DNA of 32,789 nucleotides. Source: Candidatus Woesearchaeota archaeon (GTDB lineage: Archaea; Nanobdellota; Nanobdellia; Pacearchaeales; GW2011-AR1). The translations under genes were made by a program, and so were the position numbers. Numbering within the stretch: position 1 is the stretch's first letter; each line of letters opens with the position of its first letter. The notes under the pieces were generated by a model. The model was not told the DNA's origin and made no database searches. It saw nothing but the letters and a program-made list of their open reading frames with translations. The stretch is from NCBI GenBank assembly GCA_964622565.1, contig CAZUQL010000002.1:1-32789 (forward strand). Direction: 5' to 3'. Positions 9,858-32,789 of the stretch are shown here, in pieces.

Positions 9858-9938
9858 GCCGCCATCGCATAATGGTATTGCACCTGGCTTGAGACCAGGG
9901 CCCTTCGGGGCATCCCCGTTCGATTCGGGGTGGCGGCG
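9858..9938 (+). tRNA. tRNA-Ser (anticodon UGA), no encoded CCA
   Basis: Hand-folded. Acceptor GCCGCCA/TGGCGGC, 3-bp D stem GCA/TGC, anticodon stem CCTGG/CCAGG with loop CTTGAGA (anticodon TGA). Long variable arm G-CCC-TTCG-GGG-CAT. T arm CCCCG-TTCGATT-CGGGG. Discriminator G. Confidence 0.85.
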
Positions 9939-23307: not shown

Positions 23308-23381
23308 GGGGTTGTAGTGTAGCCTGGTTAGCATTGCAGGTTTGGGACCTGCCGACCCCGGTTCAAATCCGGGCAACCCCA
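23308..23381 (+). tRNA. tRNA-Pro (anticodon UGG), no encoded CCA
   Basis: Hand-folded. Acceptor GGGGTTG/CAACCCC, D arm GTGT-AGCCTGGTTA-GCAT, anticodon stem GCAGG/CCTGC with loop TTTGGGA (anticodon TGG). T arm CCCGG-TTCAAAT-CCGGG. Discriminator A. Confidence 0.9.
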
Positions 23382-23749: not shown

Positions 23750-24067
23750 ATGACTAAGGATTCTCAAATTCAAGAAATGCAATTACTAGAGCAAAATTTG
23801 CAAAACATACTGATGCAAAAACAAGCATTCAACATGGAACTTGCAGAGTCAAATTCTGCACTTCAAGAACTTCAAAAAGCAGGAGAAGAAGTTTACAAAA
23901 TAGTTGGAGGATTAATGTTGAAATCAGATAAATCAAAAGTTTTAGAAGATCTTGAAAACAAGAAAAAGCTTTTTGAATTAAGACTTAAAAATTTAGAAAA
24001 GCAAGAAATTACTTTATCTGAAAAAGTGGACTTAATTAGGCAAGAAATTCTTAAAGAAAGAAAGTAA
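23750..24067 (+). CDS. pfdB: prefoldin beta subunit
   Basis: 105 aa. Two coiled-coil arms around a central beta hairpin (...EEVYKIVGGLMLKSDKSKVLEDLE...). TAAAATG coupling to rpoP. Confidence 0.85.
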   Translation: MTKDSQIQEMQLLEQNLQNILMQKQAFNMELAESNSALQELQKAGEEVYKIVGGLMLKSDKSKVLEDLENKKKLFELRLKNLEKQEITLSEKVDLIRQEILKERK

Positions 24068-24119: not shown

Positions 24120-24512
24120 ATGGTTTTTGATAAAATAAAAAAAGCACTGTCGCAAAATTCAGATGGATTTCCAGATAATGAATATCTTGAAATTGATTTT
24201 AGCGAGGAAGAAAAAGATAAAAAAGTTTCTGTAAAGTTATTTGTACTTCATGATTATGAAGATGTTCACAAAATTTTAGAGGCAATTCGAGGAGGTTATA
24301 CTATTGTCGTAATTGATATTAAAACACTAAGACAAAAAGACCCTATTGAGTTAAAAAGAGTTATTTCTAAAGTTAAAAAAACAATTGATGCAATTGACGG
24401 AAGCATTGCGGGATTTGGAGAAAATCTTGTAATCGCAACACCTGCATTTGCAGTAATCTCAAAAGATTCTTCTTTAAGAAAAGAACATTCAGACGCAGAG
24501 AGATTTGAATAA
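24120..24512 (+). CDS. sepF: cell division protein SepF (archaeal FtsZ anchor)
   Basis: 130 aa. N-terminal short amphipathic segment MVFDKIKKAL, then a core ...VSVKLFVLHDYEDVHKILEAIRGGYTIVVIDIKTL...IDAIDGSIAGFGENLVIATP matching the SepF/DUF552 fold pattern. Confidence 0.8.
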   Translation: MVFDKIKKALSQNSDGFPDNEYLEIDFSEEEKDKKVSVKLFVLHDYEDVHKILEAIRGGYTIVVIDIKTLRQKDPIELKRVISKVKKTIDAIDGSIAGFGENLVIATPAFAVISKDSSLRKEHSDAERFE

Positions 24513-25417: not shown

Positions 25418-25775
25418 ATGCTTTTTATTCCTCTTCAAAGCCTGAGAATCTTATTCCCCCCTTTAGATATAAACGGAATAGAAGAATTATTAAAACACCT
25501 CTCTACTTTCCTTCCAATAAACATTCATTATCTTTACAAAACTCATTGTGATTTAAGGCATCGCCCCGAAGATTTATCTGAAATCGCTCCTTAACACATC
25601 TTATTCTCAATTTAGGGGCGCGATTAGATACTTAGAAAATTTAGGGGATTCTTTTCCTTTTGAAACAGAGAGATTGAATGAATGGTTTAATCAATTAATT
25701 TTTATCCCCCTTCCCTCTGAAAAGGTGGCTTGCATTAAAGAATCAATAAGAGATTATTTTGAATCTAAACATTAG
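25418..25775 (+). pseudogene. two consecutive open frames that look like one frame-shifted gene
   Basis: Frame A, 25418-25594: MLFIPLQSLRILFPPLDINGIEELLKHLSTFLPINIHYLYKTHCDLRHRPEDLSEIAP*. Frame B is open 25557-25775 without an early start codon: ...NTSYSQFRGAIRYLENLGDSFPFETERLNEWFNQLIFIPLPSEKVACIKESIRDYFESKH*. Confidence 0.3.
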
Positions 25776-26148
25776 CAATACTGAATACTGTTTTCAAGGC
25801 TACAATTATTGTTGCAGGAACAAATAAAGTAAGCAATGCCCCAAAAACAGAAGTTACAATATCCCCCAGCCCGATTCCAATCAGAGAACCTTTTACACTT
25901 TCCATTCCAAATTTACTAACAATAACTAAAATCGCTCCAGCAACCATAAATGTTTGAGAATCTTTACTTGTAACATTCAAGAAACCTACTGCTAATCCAA
26001 ATATAACCAAAATCGCATAAATCTGTGGACTATGTTGAGTCAAAGCAGGAATTGGAAGCAAAGTTGTCGAAAGCCCTATTAATATAGCTAGTACAACCCC
26101 CACCAAAAATGTCCACGCTCCAACAGAGTTCTCTTTTGATTTAATCAT
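25765..26148 (-). CDS. small polytopic membrane protein (about 4 TM helices)
   Basis: 127 aa, almost entirely hydrophobic helices (WTFLVGVVLAILIGL..., IYAILVIFGLAVGFL..., FMVAGAILVIV..., VFGALLTLFVPATIIVAL). Divergent from the surface-protein gene. Confidence 0.6.
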   Translation of the reverse strand: MIKSKENSVGAWTFLVGVVLAILIGLSTTLLPIPALTQHSPQIYAILVIFGLAVGFLNVTSKDSQTFMVAGAILVIVSKFGMESVKGSLIGIGLGDIVTSVFGALLTLFVPATIIVALKTVFSIANV

Positions 26149-26256: not shown

Positions 26257-28152
26257 ATGAAAACAAAACATTTCGCATCGTTGATTGCATGTTTATTCTC
26301 AATAATTTTAATTGCAGGATTAGCAAATGCAGCAGTTTTTGAAATGGACTTAATCTCTGTCCCTCAAAACATTTCTCATGATTCTACTTCATTTTCAGTT
26401 TTATTTAATCTAACTTACACCGGAACTTCAAGTTCTATCTCTATTGATTTATCTGATTCCGCTATTAGTGCAGGTCAAGCAACAATTACTTTTGATTCTG
26501 ACCAGGTGAATTTATCTCAGAATGAAGTTAAGGTTTTGAGTGCTACTATTAATTTTAATGCTTATCAAGTAGGAAACATCGCAGGATCTATTAAAGCAGT
26601 TCCTTCTTCAGGAACAGAAATTATCAAAACATTCTCAGTTCCAATCTTATCTTCAAAAGAATTAACTGTAGCAAATGTTGCAGTTTCTTCAGGTTCAACT
26701 GTTGCAAATGTTGCAATAAAAAATTCAGGAAATCAACCTTTATCCAATATTCAATTAACAAAATCCGGAGATTTCTCTGCCTCTTTATCTACCTCCACTA
26801 TCGCTTCTTTAGCCGCTGGAGCATCTCAAACAATTACAGTTACTATTCTTGAGGATTTAGAAGACTTAGAGATAGGAGCAAACACATTGACAATCACTGC
26901 AACAGCTTCAGACGGAACAGCTGATTCAGGTGTTGTATCTGTTAATGGAAAATACTGTAATTATGAAAACAACGGAAATTTAAAGTTAAGTAATTTAGAA
27001 GTAGATGTTAATTCTGGTTACGGAAACAATGAAGAATGGTTTGCATTTGATGAGATTGAAGTTTCATTAGATATTGATAATAAAGGAAACGACGATATTA
27101 AGAATATTGAAATTGAATGGGGACTTTATAATACTGTAACAGGGAACTGGATTGTTGATGACAAAGAAAGTGACTTTGACTTAAAAGATGGAAAAGATAA
27201 ATCTGTAACTTTCACTTTTATTTTAGATAAAGACATTGATGAATTTGAAGATGGAGATTTTGTCTTCTATGTTAAAGCAACTGGAGATGATAAAGAATTT
27301 GGAGGAAACGAAACTTGCGTAAGTGATTCTATTGCAATTGATGTACAAGTAGAAAGCGATTTTGTAATCGCGAGTGATGTTCAGATTGATAACAGCGATT
27401 CTGTTCAATGTGGTTCAACAATTCAAATTTCAGGAGAGGTTTGGAACATTGGTTCAGATGACCAAGATGAAGTATCTGTCGATATTTTCAATAGTGAATT
27501 AGGAATTGACGAACGATTTGATATTGGAGACATCGATGCTTTGGATAGTGAAAAAATGGATATCTCATTAAAAATCCCTTCAAATGCAGAATCAAAAACT
27601 TATTACTTAAGATTACAAGTTGTAGATGAAGACGGCGATGTTTATGAAAATGACTACGATGATGATTTATCTGAATCTTTTTTAGAAATAAAAGTAACTG
27701 GATGTTCTTCAAGTGCTTCAATTGCTTCTATCTCAGCAGTTTTAGAATCCGGCGGAAACCCTGGTGAAGAGTTAGTAGTAAAAGCAACTGTAACAAATAC
27801 AGAGTCATCAACTCAAACTTACACTTTAAATGCAGCAGGTTATTCAAACTGGGCAACATTAGGCCAGGTTTCACCTCAAACATTCACTCTAAGCTCAGGT
27901 CAATCTCAAACAGCTTATGTAACATTAAATGTAAATGACAACGCTGAAGGAGATAAATTATTCTCTTTAGAGTTAACATCTTCAAAAGGAACAATGACCC
28001 AACCAGTTTCAGTTTCAATTAGTTCTGGAAGTTCTGGAATCACAGGAGCATTTATCGGAGCAAATAACTGGTACTTATGGGGAATTGGATTACTTAATGT
28101 AGTTCTTGTAGTAATAATTGTAATTGTAGCAATCAGAGTTGCTAGAAGTTAA
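26257..28152 (+). CDS. secreted cell-surface protein with C-terminal sorting-signal-like anchor
   Basis: 631 aa. N-terminal signal peptide (MKTKHFASLIACLFSIILIAGLANA). Ser/Thr/Asn/Asp-rich beta-type modules of the V.N.G.. kind (VAIKNSGNQPLSNIQL, VWNIGSDDQDEVSVDIFN, VTNTESSTQTYTL). C-terminus ...SSGSSGITGAFIGANNWYLWGIGLLNVVLVVIIVIVAIRVARS. Confidence 0.8.
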   Translation: MKTKHFASLIACLFSIILIAGLANAAVFEMDLISVPQNISHDSTSFSVLFNLTYTGTSSSISIDLSDSAISAGQATITFDSDQVNLSQNEVKVLSATINFNAYQVGNIAGSIKAVPSSGTEIIKTFSVPILSSKELTVANVAVSSGSTVANVAIKNSGNQPLSNIQLTKSGDFSASLSTSTIASLAAGASQTITVTILEDLEDLEIGANTLTITATASDGTADSGVVSVNGKYCNYENNGNLKLSNLEVDVNSGYGNNEEWFAFDEIEVSLDIDNKGNDDIKNIEIEWGLYNTVTGNWIVDDKESDFDLKDGKDKSVTFTFILDKDIDEFEDGDFVFYVKATGDDKEFGGNETCVSDSIAIDVQVESDFVIASDVQIDNSDSVQCGSTIQISGEVWNIGSDDQDEVSVDIFNSELGIDERFDIGDIDALDSEKMDISLKIPSNAESKTYYLRLQVVDEDGDVYENDYDDDLSESFLEIKVTGCSSSASIASISAVLESGGNPGEELVVKATVTNTESSTQTYTLNAAGYSNWATLGQVSPQTFTLSSGQSQTAYVTLNVNDNAEGDKLFSLELTSSKGTMTQPVSVSISSGSSGITGAFIGANNWYLWGIGLLNVVLVVIIVIVAIRVARS

Positions 28153-28153
28153 A

Positions 28154-28369
28154 ATGGTAAGTAGAATAATCACCTATGCTTGCCCTCATTTAAATTCTAT
28201 TAATTCAGCAGAAGGTTTTACCCCCCAAACCACAAGGGGCGAAGTTCTTTTAAGATTGAGCGTTAACTCTATAGGAGATGAAGATGTATTTATTGAGTAC
28301 TGTCCTAAATATAAGAAGGACAACCCTCCTCGTTGTGATCTTCTTAGAAAAGATTGCCCCCTTGTATAA
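28154..28369 (+). CDS. hypothetical 71-aa four-cysteine protein coupled to the surface-protein gene
   Basis: ATG 28154 lies 1 nt after the TAA of the 631-aa gene (TAAAATG). MVSRIITYACPHL...EYCPKYKKDNPPRCDLLRKDCPLV. Three of the four Cys occur as CP dipeptides. Confidence 0.45.
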   Translation: MVSRIITYACPHLNSINSAEGFTPQTTRGEVLLRLSVNSIGDEDVFIEYCPKYKKDNPPRCDLLRKDCPLV

Positions 28370-28431
28370 TTAATCAATCTTATCACCCCAAATTTCCAAA
28401 TCTTTTTAATCTCCAAATTCTTATTTATCTT

Positions 28432-28950
28432 ATGAAACAAACTAATAATATTTTATTTCTCTGTCTTAGATACCTCTTACTTCTTTTAATCGCAGTTCCA
28501 AATTTTTATCTATTTTACAAAATCCTAACTCCGCTAACCTTACAGGTTTCGTATTTTTTACTTAGTTTATTTTTTCAAGTAGAATTAATTAACAACACCT
28601 TAATTATCTCAGAATATTTCATAGATATCATCCCTGCGTGCGTAGCAGCCTCAGCATACTATCTTTTACTGATTCTGAATCTAACAATTCCTATGCAAAC
28701 AAAACAAAGAATTAAATTAATCCCCCTTTCTTTACTCATTTTATTTTCTTTCAACATTGTAAGAATCTTTATTTTCTCAATTCTATTTGTAAATGATTTC
28801 GTCTTCTTTGAAGTGCTTCACTATTTTTTTTGGTATTTCTTAAGCATATTTATCGTCGTTGGCATTTGGTTTTTTGAAACAAAGATATTTAAAATAAAAG
28901 CCATTCCATTTTATACAGATATAAAATTTTTAATTAAACAACTCCGATGA
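28432..28950 (+). CDS. minimal exosortase/archaeosortase-family membrane protein (putative transpeptidase)
   Basis: 172 aa from ATG 28432, polytopic. Ordered Cys (DIIPACVAASAYY), Arg (FSFNIVRIFIF) and His (FFEVLHYFFWYF) embedded in TM helices, as in the exosortase/archaeosortase catalytic-triad layout. Adjacent to a protein with a motif-TM-basic C-terminus. Confidence 0.6.
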   Translation: MKQTNNILFLCLRYLLLLLIAVPNFYLFYKILTPLTLQVSYFLLSLFFQVELINNTLIISEYFIDIIPACVAASAYYLLLILNLTIPMQTKQRIKLIPLSLLILFSFNIVRIFIFSILFVNDFVFFEVLHYFFWYFLSIFIVVGIWFFETKIFKIKAIPFYTDIKFLIKQLR

Positions 28951-29567
28951 TAGCTCTCCTATTTGATTCCTTAACTGAATTTTTTCTTTCTTTAATTGGA
29001 CAAATTGGCTATTTTGGAATATTCTTATTAATGACTATTGAAAGTTCATTCATCCCTTTCCCAAGCGAAGTCGTTTTAATTCCTGCAGGAGCACTTATCT
29101 CCTTGGGAAAAATGAATTTTTTCTTTGTTTTCTTAATGGCGTTGTTGGGTAGTTTAACTGGGGCATTAATTAATTATTTTCTAGCTTTAATCCTTGGGAG
29201 ACCGCTAATTGAATTACTTATATCTAACTACGGAAAATTTTTAGGGCTCTCCTTAAAATCTCTTCATAGATCTGATTTATTTTTTAGAAAAAACGGAGAG
29301 ATAACTACATTCATAGGGAGATTAATTCCAGTAATTCGTCAATTGATCTCTCTTCCAGCAGGGTTTTCTAAAATGAATTTATTCAAGTTCTCTTTATTTA
29401 CTTCATTAGGCGCAGGAATCTGGTCGTTTATTTTAATTTTCTTAGGTTATTTATTTGGGAATAATATCGATTTAATAAAACAAGAATTAAATTTAATAAC
29501 CTGGAGCACCCTCGGAATTTCTTTAATTGTCTTATTGATTTACTTTAAACTTCACAATCGAGAATAA
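28947..29567 (+). CDS. DedA family (VTT domain) membrane protein
   Basis: 206 aa. GYFGIFLLMTIESSFIPFPSEVVLIPAGAL... and ...TFIGRLIPVIRQLISLPAG... are DedA signatures. 4-nt overlap with the upstream gene. Confidence 0.85.
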   Translation: MIALLFDSLTEFFLSLIGQIGYFGIFLLMTIESSFIPFPSEVVLIPAGALISLGKMNFFFVFLMALLGSLTGALINYFLALILGRPLIELLISNYGKFLGLSLKSLHRSDLFFRKNGEITTFIGRLIPVIRQLISLPAGFSKMNLFKFSLFTSLGAGIWSFILIFLGYLFGNNIDLIKQELNLITWSTLGISLIVLLIYFKLHNRE

Positions 29568-30145
29568 ATCTCCTTTAAAACTTCTAAGTCAAATCTTTCT
29601 GTAACCTTTAAAATTTCACAATCGTTTATTCTTAATTCATAACAAAAAGGACTTATTTCTTTAACCTCATTTTCTTCCCCTTCTGTTAGATAAAGATACA
29701 TATAATCTGAATTTTCACTGCACCCTAAACTTTGATTTACTTGTAATGTTGTTCCACGAATCTCTAAAACTTTTTGTAAGTTTCCTACTGAAATAGATCC
29801 GTCTCCATTGCAGTTAAACTCACTTGAACTATTAATAATTGCAACTGGAAGGAAATTTAAATTCCCACTTATCTCCAATTTCACCTCTTTCGCTGTTTTT
29901 TTTGGGTTGCCCCTTAAATAATAACTATATTCTACTGGTTCACCATAATATAAAATCGGGAAAGTCGCTTCATAAAAAACTAAGCTCCCCATACTAACTG
30001 TTTTAAAGTCAATTCCTTCATAGTTAAAGTTTAATCTAGATTGACTAAAATAATAACCTCCAAAAACAAGTAGCACAAGAATAGAAATTCCAATTAATAT
30101 GTATTGTAATTGTTTATTTTGTTCGTCTAATTGTTTCTTGTTCAT
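29552..30145 (-). CDS. N-terminally membrane-anchored extracytoplasmic protein, 4 Cys (paralog A)
   Basis: 197 aa. Basic N-terminus, one TM (YILIGISILVLLVFGGYYF), then a roughly 155-aa Tyr/Asn-rich ectodomain with four Cys. Same architecture as the adjacent upstream gene. Confidence 0.65.
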   Translation of the reverse strand: MNKKQLDEQNKQLQYILIGISILVLLVFGGYYFSQSRLNFNYEGIDFKTVSMGSLVFYEATFPILYYGEPVEYSYYLRGNPKKTAKEVKLEISGNLNFLPVAIINSSSEFNCNGDGSISVGNLQKVLEIRGTTLQVNQSLGCSENSDYMYLYLTEGEENEVKEISPFCYELRINDCEILKVTERFDLEVLKEIYSRL

Positions 30146-30708
30146 TTTAAATTAAAAATTTTATATAAGACTTCATCAGTTAATCTACTTAAATCTTCCT
30201 CTTTTCCTTGGATGAAAATACAATGGTTCTGTTGTTTTATTCCAGAACTTTCTGCCTCTTCTATGATTATCAAGTTATCTTCACAACTTTTTATTGGAAA
30301 TTCTTCTGAACAGGAAAAACCCTCGGGACAAGCATACTGAACTCGGGTTATAAAATATTGTAAATTTCTATAAATTTCTACTTCAGCGTCGCTGTTTTCC
30401 GAATAAATATATAATGGTTTATTTAAATAATCATTGACCCTTAAAGATAAATCTGCTGTTGAATTTGTTTCTAAAGGATTATATAAAAATATTAATGAGT
30501 TGTCTTGAAAGTTAGTTCTCCAATACCCTGAATTATAAACAAATTCATTTCCATTAAATTCTACTTTTTTTTGAGAAGTTTTTTCACTTGTTTGAAAAGA
30601 ATATCCTACAATACTCAAAAGAACCATGGAGACAAGAACAATCCCAATTATGATTTGATTTCGTTTTTGTTTGTTCTGTTTTTCTTTAATAGAATTAATT
30701 CTTCTCAT
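30142..30708 (-). CDS. N-terminally membrane-anchored extracytoplasmic protein, 4 Cys (paralog B)
   Basis: 188 aa. Basic N-terminus, one TM (IIIGIVLVSMVLLSIVGY), ectodomain with four Cys. C-terminal ...LSRLTDEVLYKIF compares with ...VTERFDLEVLKEIY in paralog A. 4-nt overlap with paralog A. Confidence 0.65.
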   Translation of the reverse strand: MRRINSIKEKQNKQKRNQIIIGIVLVSMVLLSIVGYSFQTSEKTSQKKVEFNGNEFVYNSGYWRTNFQDNSLIFLYNPLETNSTADLSLRVNDYLNKPLYIYSENSDAEVEIYRNLQYFITRVQYACPEGFSCSEEFPIKSCEDNLIIIEEAESSGIKQQNHCIFIQGKEEDLSRLTDEVLYKIFNLK

Positions 30709-30818: not shown

Positions 30819-32789
30819 TTAAGCTGTTGTTGTAACCAATTCAGCGCTAGTTGAAGATGTACCTACATACTTCTTTCCTGCAGTTGTATCTACAGTTTGA
30901 GTAGTCACGTAAGTAGCAGCATTTTGTGTGTCTGCAACATCATAACCTGCAACAAGCAAAGCAACCTTACCAGTTGTGTAAGCATCGCTAAAGCTCTGTA
31001 TCAAAAATTGACCAGAACCAACACTTGTAGCATCTGTGAAACTTGCTCCACAATATGCACCACCTAACAATTTAGCAGCAACTGAGTTAATACATGATCC
31101 ACCTACAACAATTAAGTTTTTGTTTGAAACAGAATTAACTTCTGAATCTTTAACCAAAACCTCACCTAAGCTTGTAGCTGAAGTAGTTGTTGAGCCGGTT
31201 GATATAGAAGCATCTGGAGCAGATACATAAATCTCTCCATATGACTCATCACCGTGGTACACCACATCTAAATTATACTGGTCTTGACTCTTGTCCCATA
31301 GAAGTTCAGTAGCTAAATCAGAATAGATAAAGCTTCTATAAACATCTGTGTTTTCAACTTCAAGGAATGTTGTTGACTCTCCTAAAACATCACTTACATG
31401 AGGTTCAGCAGTTGTAGCTGAATTCCATCCAAGAACAGCAGTAACATCAGTTCCACTTCCGATGTTTCCACTTTTGTCTTCTTCATCGAAAACAAGGTAG
31501 AATGAAGTAGCGTTGTGTCCTGTTTCTCCTGCTAATGAGAAGTTTATAGCTCCCCAACTTAAAGTGTTATTTGCCTCTTCATGAGGTAAGTAAACCATCA
31601 TTCCTTCTGCTGAGAACAAAGTTGTAAAGTTAACATAAGCGTTTCCACGAGTAATATTAACTGTCTTTAAGTCTTTGTTAATTGCATTAATATTTAATTC
31701 AACACTTCCAATAGTTACACTATCTGCAGTTCCATCCCATTGAACTTCTTCACCAGAAGTCCAACTATCAGATTCTGCATATTGAATTTTTGTTTTATTA
31801 ATTGCACCACTACTTGCTTCTGAGAAACTTGTAGCTTTAACCAAATAAGACTCTGCATTACTTCCATCATTGTATGAAGCAACAAAATACGAATCTGTGT
31901 CTCCATCAAAGATTAACTCAGTAGAACTTGTAGTTACTAACCTGTGTGTAGCATCTTTACCTGTTCCGTTGAATTGTCCAGCGACAGTTCGATATAATAT
32001 GTTTATATCTGCTGTAGCACCTTTCATTGGGAAATTGTCAAGATAAACATACTCACTTGCTCCTTTAACAGAAATTGTTTCTTCCTCAGGATAGTACATT
32101 CCAGCCATAGATAATTTAACTGCTCCAAAACCAGGCATTAAAACCTCACTATCTGGAGTTATAAATAAGTCATCTTGTGCTTTCCACTCAATAACTACCT
32201 TATCTAATTTTCCTGCTGCTGTGTTTGTAAAGAAAGCTTGTAGATCAGATACTGAATCATCATTTAACTCAATATCGTTTCCGTGTTGAAGAACAAGTTT
32301 TCCTGTTCCAATACTAAACTCTACTCTACTTACAGAACCTGTTTTTGAGTCATACATAATATCTTTGATTCCAACATAAGCTCCACCACTCAATTTTTGA
32401 GTTTGTGCTTCTGCTAGAGTATTTGTAGTTTCTCCATTAATGTTAAGTTTTGCTTCACCAGAACCAATGAAAGCCACTGATACTTCGTAAGTTTTTCCAT
32501 TAACATCAACACTTACAGATTCTCCTTCTGTTACAGTTGCAGTGTTAGCTGAATCTAATAGATTAAGAGTAGTTCGGTTTGTTATACTTAAAACATAATA
32601 CTCCTTACCCATTATAACTATATCACTGTTTGTTAAGTCTGCCCATTCAGGATTATCAGTCATATCAAGAGTATAATTCATTACATATGCACCGCTTGAT
32701 ATACTAATTCCTACTGTAGGAACATCATCTTTATAGTCTCCATCTTCCCACATAGTCAAAGATAAATTTGCTAACTCAATTTTTTGAGT
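30819..32789 (-). CDS. S-layer protein (S_layer_C-type C-terminal domain), 5' end outside window
   Basis: Frame stays open upstream of the track's TTG start to the window edge (...TQKIELANLSLTMWEDG...). At least 656 aa, Thr/Ser/Asn/Val-rich beta protein. C-terminal ...KNLIVVGGSCINSVAAKLLGG...GKVALLVAGYDVADTQNAATYV... resembles the C-terminal domain of euryarchaeal S-layer proteins. No C-terminal TM. Confidence 0.8.
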   Translation of the reverse strand, partial: TQKIELANLSLTMWEDGDYKDDVPTVGISISSGAYVMNYTLDMTDNPEWADLTNSDIVIMGKEYYVLSITNRTTLNLLDSANTATVTEGESVSVDVNGKTYEVSVAFIGSGEAKLNINGETTNTLAEAQTQKLSGGAYVGIKDIMYDSKTGSVSRVEFSIGTGKLVLQHGNDIELNDDSVSDLQAFFTNTAAGKLDKVVIEWKAQDDLFITPDSEVLMPGFGAVKLSMAGMYYPEEETISVKGASEYVYLDNFPMKGATADINILYRTVAGQFNGTGKDATHRLVTTSSTELIFDGDTDSYFVASYNDGSNAESYLVKATSFSEASSGAINKTKIQYAESDSWTSGEEVQWDGTADSVTIGSVELNINAINKDLKTVNITRGNAYVNFTTLFSAEGMMVYLPHEEANNTLSWGAINFSLAGETGHNATSFYLVFDEEDKSGNIGSGTDVTAVLGWNSATTAEPHVSDVLGESTTFLEVENTDVYRSFIYSDLATELLWDKSQDQYNLDVVYHGDESYGEIYVSAPDASISTGSTTTSATSLGEVLVKDSEVNSVSNKNLIVVGGSCINSVAAKLLGGAYCGASFTDATSVGSGQFLIQSFSDAYTTGKVALLVAGYDVADTQNAATYVTTQTVDTTAGKKYVGTSSTSAELVTTTA

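Follow-up and report, generated by a model that had tools for sequence, protein, structure and literature searches.

A compact candidate archaeosortase system with one predicted surface-protein substrate in a Pacearchaeota-type DPANN archaeon

How would a Pacearchaeota-type DPANN archaeon fasten a large secreted protein to its surface? The question arises from a DNA stretch of 32,789 nucleotides (nt), here called the window (GC content ~32%; contig CAZUQL010000002.1 of GenBank assembly GCA_964622565.1, deposited as Candidatus Woesearchaeota archaeon), in which the gene for a 631-residue secreted protein lies upstream of, and on the same strand as, the gene for a 172-residue polytopic membrane protein. 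A first-pass annotation made from the sequence alone had read the two as a substrate and its minimal archaeosortase, that is, as a sortase–substrate module with an uncharacterised recognition motif. The open reading frames (ORFs) it listed, their coordinates, the Cys/Arg/His motifs of the enzyme, the neighbouring DedA gene and the C-terminal tail of the substrate are all found where it placed them. The module itself is not uncharacterised in the databases: NCBIfam has a curated model for each half (NF033505 and NF033506), NCBI names the database homologues ‘pacearchaeosortase’ and ‘putative S-layer protein’, and the pair is already known as two curated, named families.

In this work, we combine profile searches, comparison of related loci and structure prediction to ask what this pair does. 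We propose, with a probability of roughly 85%, that it constitutes a dedicated archaeosortase system, in which the pacearchaeosortase would cleave a substrate bearing the PACE-CTERM tail and most likely anchor it to a lipid. The enzyme has a conserved Cys/Arg/His set, the substrate tail carries a near-invariant signature in fixed register with its basic cluster, and the two genes remain together, one enzyme to one substrate, across related loci.

Results

The 172-residue protein is a pacearchaeosortase

The 172-residue protein matches NF033505 with 179.9 bits (cutoff 80, E = 4 × 10−53) over profile positions 4–166 of 167, and its residues 65–148 match positions 2–91 of the 97-position TIGR04178 signature with 32.4 bits (cutoff 23), which bears out its assignment to the exosortase/archaeosortase group. 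Its NCBIfam matches at E ≤ 1 do not include ArtA; among the other archaeosortase models ArtE ranks first (20.1 bits, cutoff 95), and the ArtE, ArtD, XrtH, XrtM, XrtX and heimdallarchaeosortase models together span 9.7–20 bits against cutoffs of 86–170. We found 477 homologues in the protein database and relatives in the genomes of 301 species.

The enzyme is, as the first-pass annotation had remarked, far shorter than ArtA, whose genes measure 912 bp and 834 bp. Its size is not unusual, as several archaeosortase and exosortase subfamilies are modelled by profiles of only 150–170 positions (ArtD 150, ArtE 153, XrtH 158 and XrtX 168); with XrtM and heimdallarchaeosortase included, these small enzymes have profiles of 150–199 positions, and they differ from the pacearchaeosortase in their targets and signals.

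In an alignment of 49 homologues (45–55% identity), C70, R111 and H130, which lie in the motifs IIPACVAASAY, FNIVRIF and EVLHYFFWY, respectively, are invariant, so that the three residues picked out from the sequence do form a conserved triad; their invariance also indicates that the sortase is under selection. R13, Y14, N83, R93, N108 and W134 are invariant in the same alignment. Cys, Arg and His are the suspected catalytic triad throughout the wider family (Haft preprint), and in Haloferax ArtA, Cys173, Arg214 and Arg253 proved critical on mutagenesis. Cys70 and Arg111 of the pacearchaeosortase are 41 residues apart, as are Cys173 and Arg214 of ArtA.

The AlphaFold2 (AF2) model of the enzyme (mean predicted local distance difference test (pLDDT) score 90.2, predicted template modelling score (pTM) 0.81) has helices at residues 2–21, 25–45, 68–85, 90–120, 126–152 and 159–171, five of them long, and a small β-sheet at 50–65. 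C70, R111 and H130 sit at helix ends beside acidic loops free of Lys and Arg. By the positive-inside rule, the Lys/Arg-rich segments 90–95 and 150–172 would face the cytoplasm and the acidic loops 46–67 and 121–125 the outside, a distribution that would put all three residues at the outer boundary of the membrane. Solved structures yielded neither a sequence match nor a fold match to the sortase.

Counts of neighbouring genes in this and the following sections refer to the best 80 of the 301 sortase-relative genome loci (L001–L080), collected by a profile-driven scan of species-representative genomes. All except one are titled Pacearchaeota, Woesearchaeota, Nanoarchaeota or ‘archaeon’ (79 of 80). 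The remaining locus, L080 (contig CAYRAD010000265.1), carries a bacterial genus name in its label (‘uncultured Vicingus sp.’); because it encodes a substrate orthologue with a typical tail and a neighbouring PAP2 gene, it is probably a mis-binned archaeal contig.

The substrate carries a conserved tail in fixed register

The 631-residue protein matches NF033506 (‘PACE-CTERM-PROT putative S-layer protein’) over positions 2–626 of 627 with 524.7 bits (cutoff 110, E = 4 × 10−157). Its role in an S-layer is putative, being the curator’s prediction contained in the family name. The only Pfam domains within it are immunoglobulin (Ig)-like (CARDB, FixG_C and NPCBM_assoc), and Foldseek searches with its model returned only generic Ig/MG-domain arrays at TM-scores of 0.15–0.26. 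The AF2 model (pLDDT 89.6) comprises a signal helix (residues 4–22), an all-β region of about five β-sandwich domains (28–588), a disordered linker (591–604, pLDDT < 50) that contains GITGAF, and a single helix (605–630) that starts at NWYLW. By inspection, the N terminus is a predicted signal peptide with a basic n-region, a hydrophobic core and an A-N-A motif; among the aligned orthologues, S24 and A25 scarcely vary. The sortase and the substrate share only ~55% and ~49% identity, respectively, with their closest database relatives, so we take the organism of the window to be a distinct species. The locus of this same organism is present in several public samples (ENA ERZ27248920, ERZ27248922 and ERZ27248965; JGI 3300028193; SRR8437287), at 99.8–100% identity.

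The protein ends in ...SSGSSGITGAFIGANNWYLWGIGLLNVVLVVIIVIVAIRVARS. To describe this tail we used 69 orthologues from related loci and a wider set of 165 distinct tails that includes database proteins. Its helix-entry consensus, NWYLW-GIG-x-L-N, contains a near-invariant Trp608 (65 of 69 tails) and Asn614 (64 of 69), and the corresponding W-x5-N pattern is found in 146 of the 165 distinct tails. In 142 of these 146, exactly 19 residues lead from the invariant Trp to the first Lys or Arg, and two to four Lys/Arg residues then occur. The signature is followed by a uniformly aliphatic stretch and then by [RK]-x-x-[RK]-[KRS]. The tripartite arrangement of motif, transmembrane helix and basic cluster that had been proposed is thus conserved in the family, in both tail sets, whereas the motif itself is not of the G-[AS]-F (‘GAF’) type that the first-pass annotation suggested: the signature consists of G-[IL]-T-G plus NWYLWGIGxLN, and its most conserved residues, Trp608 and Asn614, lie inside what had been called the transmembrane helix.

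Because the signature abuts the transmembrane helix in systems with membrane-embedded sorting enzymes (Haft preprint), we take NWYLWGIGxLN as the likely recognition element and the likely region of cleavage as well. The G-I-T-G motif in the linker is a possible alternative cleavage site. Recognition and cleavage would then take place there, in the manner of LPXTG and its spacer, and NWYLW...N would merely dock the helix. The motif is conserved to a degree (column counts among the 69 tails of G 39, I 39 or L 17, T 50 and G 52) and in the AF2 model it sits in a disordered, accessible linker. However, between 4 and 15 residues separate [ILF]TG from the Trp at the helix, the motif is missing from ~28% of the W-x5-N tails, and a signature set apart from the helix departs from the arrangement described for membrane-embedded enzymes. 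We therefore consider cleavage at the linker unlikely and favour the helix-entry signature.

Enzyme and putative substrate form a one-to-one pair in the loci compared

A substrate orthologue lies directly upstream of the sortase gene and co-directional with it in 73 of the 80 loci. Most of the seven loci without one are contigs that end near the sortase; the genuine departures reflect local rearrangement: L047 contains an inversion, L065 has an inserted gene, and upstream of the sortase in L039 we could recognise nothing. The two genes are 279 nt apart in the window (28153–28431) and 24 to ~1,400 nt apart in related loci.

We then approached the pair from the side of the tail. A hidden Markov model (HMM) of the tail, run against every ORF of at least 45 residues in the related loci (~800 kb) and the window, recovered orthologues of the 631-residue protein only, the next E value being 0.87, and a generic scan of the window for C-terminal anchors revealed no further ORF with such a tail. 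Starting from the tail in metagenome contigs, we obtained 32 loci, 31 of which have an identifiable substrate orthologue, the ORF of the 32nd being cut to 49 residues by the contig end; the sortase follows wherever downstream DNA suffices, except in L112. The metagenome scan used a narrower tail alignment and is biased toward NWYLWGI-type tails. Because tail-first searches recover only orthologues of the 631-residue protein, the pair is, on this comparison of sequences, a dedicated one-to-one sortase–substrate system. The Haft preprint describes such a dedicated category, with an enzyme and a single target recognised as adjacent genes.

The first-pass annotation had held that a tail shared by no other protein of the genome would be a plain transmembrane anchor. 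No other protein family was indeed found to carry the tail, and yet its conservation among orthologues sets it apart from a plain anchor; that line of reasoning does not apply to a one-to-one system of the category described by Haft.

A proposed cleavage and anchoring mechanism

Taking family membership, the conservation of residues and tail, the tail register, gene adjacency and one-to-one pairing together, we infer the following course by analogy with characterised systems. The 631-residue protein would be exported by its N-terminal signal peptide, and its C-terminal helix, together with the basic tail, would at first retain it in the membrane. The sortase, embedded in the membrane with Cys70, Arg111 and His130 at the outer face, would recognise the fixed-register signature at the helix entry (NWYLW-GIG-x-L-N, the first Arg 19 residues past the Trp), cleave there and remove the helix through a thioester intermediate on Cys70. 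The new C terminus would most likely be passed to an amine-bearing membrane lipid, as for Haloferax ArtA, where ArtA-dependent cleavage and lipid attachment are documented and archaetidylethanolamine synthesis is required. The β-sandwich array would thereby stay lipid-anchored at the surface, in an envelope that would also include an anchorless S_layer_C protein.

Sequence cannot distinguish a lipid-anchored from a released product, and this is the first of several points that weigh against our proposal. In the alternative, the sortase cleaves the tail and water resolves the intermediate, so that the protein is shed or kept by protein–protein contacts. Whether archaeosortases are one-step transpeptidases is explicitly unsettled (Haft preprint). 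We saw no pssA- or pssD-like gene in the cluster. DPANN archaea generally lack lipid synthesis, which we also count in favour of release. On the other hand, ArtA, the sole characterised relative, couples cleavage to lipid attachment, and lipid-handling genes (DedA, PF06695 and PAP2) flank the sortase in most loci. On balance we hold release to be quite unlikely and transfer to a lipid the better account.

It is highly improbable that the C-terminal helix is simply a permanent transmembrane anchor, with the sortase-like protein inactive or acting elsewhere and the adjacency a frozen gene order: the whole nine-gene neighbourhood is syntenic, including the apparently unrelated SepF, prefoldin subunit and Dph2-like genes, for which reason adjacency alone is weak evidence in this lineage, but a simple anchor needs no near-invariant Trp and polar Asn in fixed register with a basic cluster, the sortase triad is invariant, no other tail-bearing candidate substrate occurs in the neighbourhoods, rearrangements such as the L047 inversion have not separated the pair, and the NCBIfam curators arrived at the same pairing.

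The other reservations about a lipid-anchoring pacearchaeosortase concern its details and the scope of the data. The position of cleavage is a prediction, with the G-I-T-G linker as the possible alternative discussed above. The third critical residue of ArtA is Arg253 and not a His, and the pacearchaeosortase has no invariant Arg beyond R111 among the 49 homologues, which makes the identity of its third catalytic residue uncertain. Basic N-terminal extensions in homologues conflict with a simple five-helix transmembrane model, specifically with the orientation of helices 1 and 2. A few loci have one partner without the other in the available DNA (L039, L065 and L112), and the one-to-one pairing covers only gene neighbourhoods and a motif-biased metagenome scan. 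Finally, a full-text literature search for both family names returned no paper and no experimental data for either family, so that what is known of the pair apparently resides in database curation only.

A lipid-handling slot beside the sortase

The position 3′ of the sortase gene is occupied in the window by a DedA gene, the first 4 nt of which coincide with the end of the sortase gene, including its stop codon. The product matches the Pfam domain VTT_dom (PF09335) with 75.5 bits (cutoff 33.9); its nearest NCBIfam model is UptA, but scores of 119.8 and 109.3 bits, with cutoffs of 250 and 300, respectively, leave it short of the UptA equivalog. It is a putative lipid flippase or scramblase. 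DedA proteins carry undecaprenyl phosphate (UptA) or phosphatidylethanolamine (PetA, from the pssA-petA-psd operon), activities that are not separable by sequence. PetA clusters with UptA by sequence, and no lipid substrate can be assigned to the window protein.

Among the 72 loci with sufficient downstream DNA, this slot holds a canonical, co-directional DedA gene in 30, a PF06695 gene (~159 residues, usually on the opposite strand; Pfam scores of 110–135 bits) in 28, neither in 14 and both in none; the window has DedA only. PF06695 is itself a member of the DedA superfamily (Okawa et al.). The DedA gene that had been counted into the same co-directional block is thus tightly packed against the sortase, also in related loci (a junction of −4 or +1 nt in 23 of 33 cases), but belongs there in only ~40% of loci, with PF06695 in another ~40%. 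The mutual exclusivity has a naive Fisher P value of 7 × 10−10, which ignores phylogeny. On a rough neighbour-joining tree the slot state takes 21 Fitch steps, compared to a mean of 32 after shuffling, and agrees between nearest neighbours in 47 of 72 cases; it is phylogenetically structured, yet has switched many times. Between substrate and sortase, ~45% of informative loci (for example, L003, L004, L010 and L011) also carry, on the minus strand, a gene for a PAP2 phosphatase of ~205 residues. It occurs irrespective of the DedA/PF06695 state, and the closest NCBIfam models are undecaprenyl-diphosphatases, with scores far below their cutoffs.

ArtA-dependent lipid anchoring requires PssA and PssD, whose genes are syntenic with artA in Methanosarcina. 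A DedA-superfamily partner that moves lipid for the pacearchaeosortase, either the translationally coupled DedA or PF06695 in its place, is possible, though we advance it tentatively: the protein could supply the acceptor, delivering an ethanolamine-type lipid as PetA does, or it could recycle a polyprenyl-phosphate carrier together with the PAP2 phosphatase. The link is a lead that derives from synteny, in a lineage with generally conserved gene order. The literature we searched contains no report tying DedA to archaeosortases or describing a DedA/PF06695 alternation beside a sortase, and this alternation is possibly a new side observation. We also considered N-glycosylation as the reason for lipid-carrier genes at this locus and rejected it: the substrate contains 4 N-glycosylation sequons where 9 are expected, so sequons are not enriched and a glycosylation-centred reading finds no support.

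The surrounding genes form a conserved cluster

The features of the window are collected in Table 1. In most loci the genes follow a common order: SepF-like (+), Dph2-like (+), the 127-residue membrane protein (−), substrate (+), sortase (+), the lipid-handling gene where present, and then the 197-residue protein (−), the 188-residue protein (−) and the S_layer_C protein (−). That the upstream housekeeping genes are syntenic too shows gene order to be conserved in this lineage as a rule.

Table 1 Features of the window discussed in the text, with coordinates on the forward strand
Feature	Position (nt)	Strand	Basis or occurrence
Prefoldin subunit	23750–24067	+	Syntenic upstream housekeeping gene, many loci
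SepF-like protein	24120–24512	+	Syntenic upstream housekeeping gene, many loci
Dph2-like short protein, 204 residues	24781–25395	+	Covers positions 64–274 of a 302-position diphthamide-synthase profile
Polytopic membrane protein, 127 residues, divergent from the substrate gene	25765–26148	−	52/80 loci, directly upstream of the substrate
Substrate gene, PACE-CTERM putative S-layer/surface protein, 631 residues	26257–28152	+	NF033506
Predicted Sec signal peptide, residues 1–25, MKTKHFASLIACLFSIILIAGLANA/A	26257–26331	+	Inspection
G-I-T-G motif, residues 594–597, disordered linker ahead of the helix	28036–28047	+	Column counts in 69 tails
Helix-entry signature N-W-Y-L-W-G-I-G-L-L-N, residues 604–614	28066–28098	+	Counts in 69 tails, AF2
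Hydrophobic helix, residues 615–626, and basic cluster R-V-A-R-S, 627–631	28099–28149	+	Register in 165 tails
Orphan 71-residue ORF with four Cys (76 residues from TTG at 28139)	28154–28369	+	ORF call
Pacearchaeosortase, 172 residues, polytopic membrane protein, predicted cysteine protease or transpeptidase	28432–28950	+	NF033505, TIGR04178
Candidate catalytic codon, Cys70	28639–28641	+	
Candidate catalytic codon, Arg111	28762–28764	+	
Candidate catalytic codon, His130	28819–28821	+	
DedA/VTT-family membrane protein, 206 residues	28947–29567	+	Pfam VTT_dom PF09335
197-residue protein, N-terminal transmembrane anchor, four conserved Cys	29552–30145	−	72/80 loci, fixed position
188-residue protein, N-terminal transmembrane anchor, four conserved Cys	30142–30708	−	69/80 loci
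S_layer_C protein, Methanococcus-type, cut by the window end	30819–32789	−	Pfam PF05124, 29.4 bits

The S_layer_C reading frame is open through nt 32789, and the gene is present in 62 of the 80 loci. Its full-length homologues start with a conserved signal peptide (MKFNFKKISAI...AAAANYPAPF), reach ~800–900 residues and lack a C-terminal anchor, and a search for sequence homology between the S_layer_C protein and the 631-residue substrate found none. A two-component envelope, composed of the anchored substrate and the anchorless S_layer_C protein, is a reasonable guess and nothing more.

Two Cys-rich genes separate the sortase block from the S-layer gene. The 188-residue gene overlaps the start of the 197-residue gene by 4 nt, and the two products are distant paralogues (hhalign probability 96.6%). 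In the 197-residue protein, C112, C142, C168 and C176 are each at least 96% conserved, and Pfam and NCBIfam searches with it gave no match. This translationally coupled pair holds its place in ~70 of the 80 loci and matches no known family. The 127-residue membrane protein likewise has no significant family match in Pfam or NCBIfam.

The gap between substrate and sortase contains the four-Cys mini-ORF that the first-pass annotation had packed into the module. It has no homologue in the 80 related loci and no match in Pfam or NCBIfam, and an exhaustive phmmer search of 1.84 billion representative proteins retrieved only the ORF itself and four unrelated, repetitive proteins, heterogeneous matches whose E values come from summed repeats and are spurious. 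On these searches it does not belong to the conserved module, and we rejected it as a conserved four-Cys protein. Contigs of the same species are identical across the gap, which makes them uninformative about selection on the ORF; automatic gene callers do call it there. Its in-frame codon usage is gene-like, yet in the lowest 10% of real genes, and because of this weak resemblance it may be a species-specific orphan gene. Two other explanations of the 279-nt gap were discarded. A structured RNA or riboswitch is not indicated, as Rfam reported nothing at its gathering threshold and fold z-scores were −1.1 and −1.4; a lax Rfam search gave a lone 19-bit match to Atu_C7 (threshold 45). A remnant of a PAP2 gene was sought with tblastn, blastx and blastn against other loci, which returned nothing.

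Further upstream, tRNA-Pro (23308–23381) is the sole tRNA in the window reported by both ARAGORN and Rfam; ARAGORN also calls an 81-nt tRNA-Ser(TGA) at 9858–9938 (+), for which the Rfam tRNA model is silent at its gathering threshold.

Discussion

The pair in the window agrees with the NF033505/NF033506 families in full-length matches, gene adjacency and DPANN lineage, and no family-level difference separates them. The nearest characterised system is ArtA of Haloferax volcanii with its PGF-CTERM substrates, which shares the TIGR04178 signature, the Cys–Arg spacing, the proposed mechanism of a thioester and transpeptidation to lipid, and a tripartite C-terminal signal on an Ig-like-domain surface protein, in that case, for example, the S-layer glycoprotein. 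Whereas ArtA has ~300 residues and many substrates, the pacearchaeosortase has 172 and one. The signature of ArtA targets is PGF, which is missing from the window tail, where NWYLWGIGxLN and an upstream GITG are found instead, and the invariant third residue of the pacearchaeosortase is His130 in place of Arg253.

Comparisons further afield are looser. Bacterial sortase A, which acts on LPXTG proteins, has the same Cys/Arg/His set and the same logic of motif, helix and basic tail (Haft preprint), but it has an unrelated fold, is a tethered soluble domain and uses lipid II/peptidoglycan as acceptor, unlike the polytopic pacearchaeosortase. The lattice protein SlaA and stalk protein SlaB of Sulfolobales resemble the present cluster in that it, too, encodes two unrelated large secreted proteins, one with a C-terminal membrane helix; SlaB retains its helix, whereas that of the window substrate is predicted to be removed by the sortase. 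That the substrate and the S_layer_C protein share one lattice as SlaA and SlaB do is speculation.

The pair adds nothing new in kind, and its value is that of a very compact example. A 172-residue enzyme with one substrate, a W-x5-N signal, a 19-residue register and confident models make a convenient minimal system, one that could settle where archaeosortases cut and whether they carry out one-step transpeptidation onto a lipid. The DedA/PF06695 alternation gives a lead, open to testing, on the supply of the lipid acceptor; were the DedA-superfamily gene indeed a functional partner of the sortase, an archaeosortase and a lipid flippase would be linked genomically for the first time, in organisms thought to obtain their lipids by scavenging. 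The envelope of Pacearchaeota and of DPANN archaea is almost unknown, and the conserved cluster offers a concrete parts list for it: an anchored Ig-array protein, its sortase, a lipid-handling gene, two Cys-rich anchored paralogues and an S_layer_C protein.

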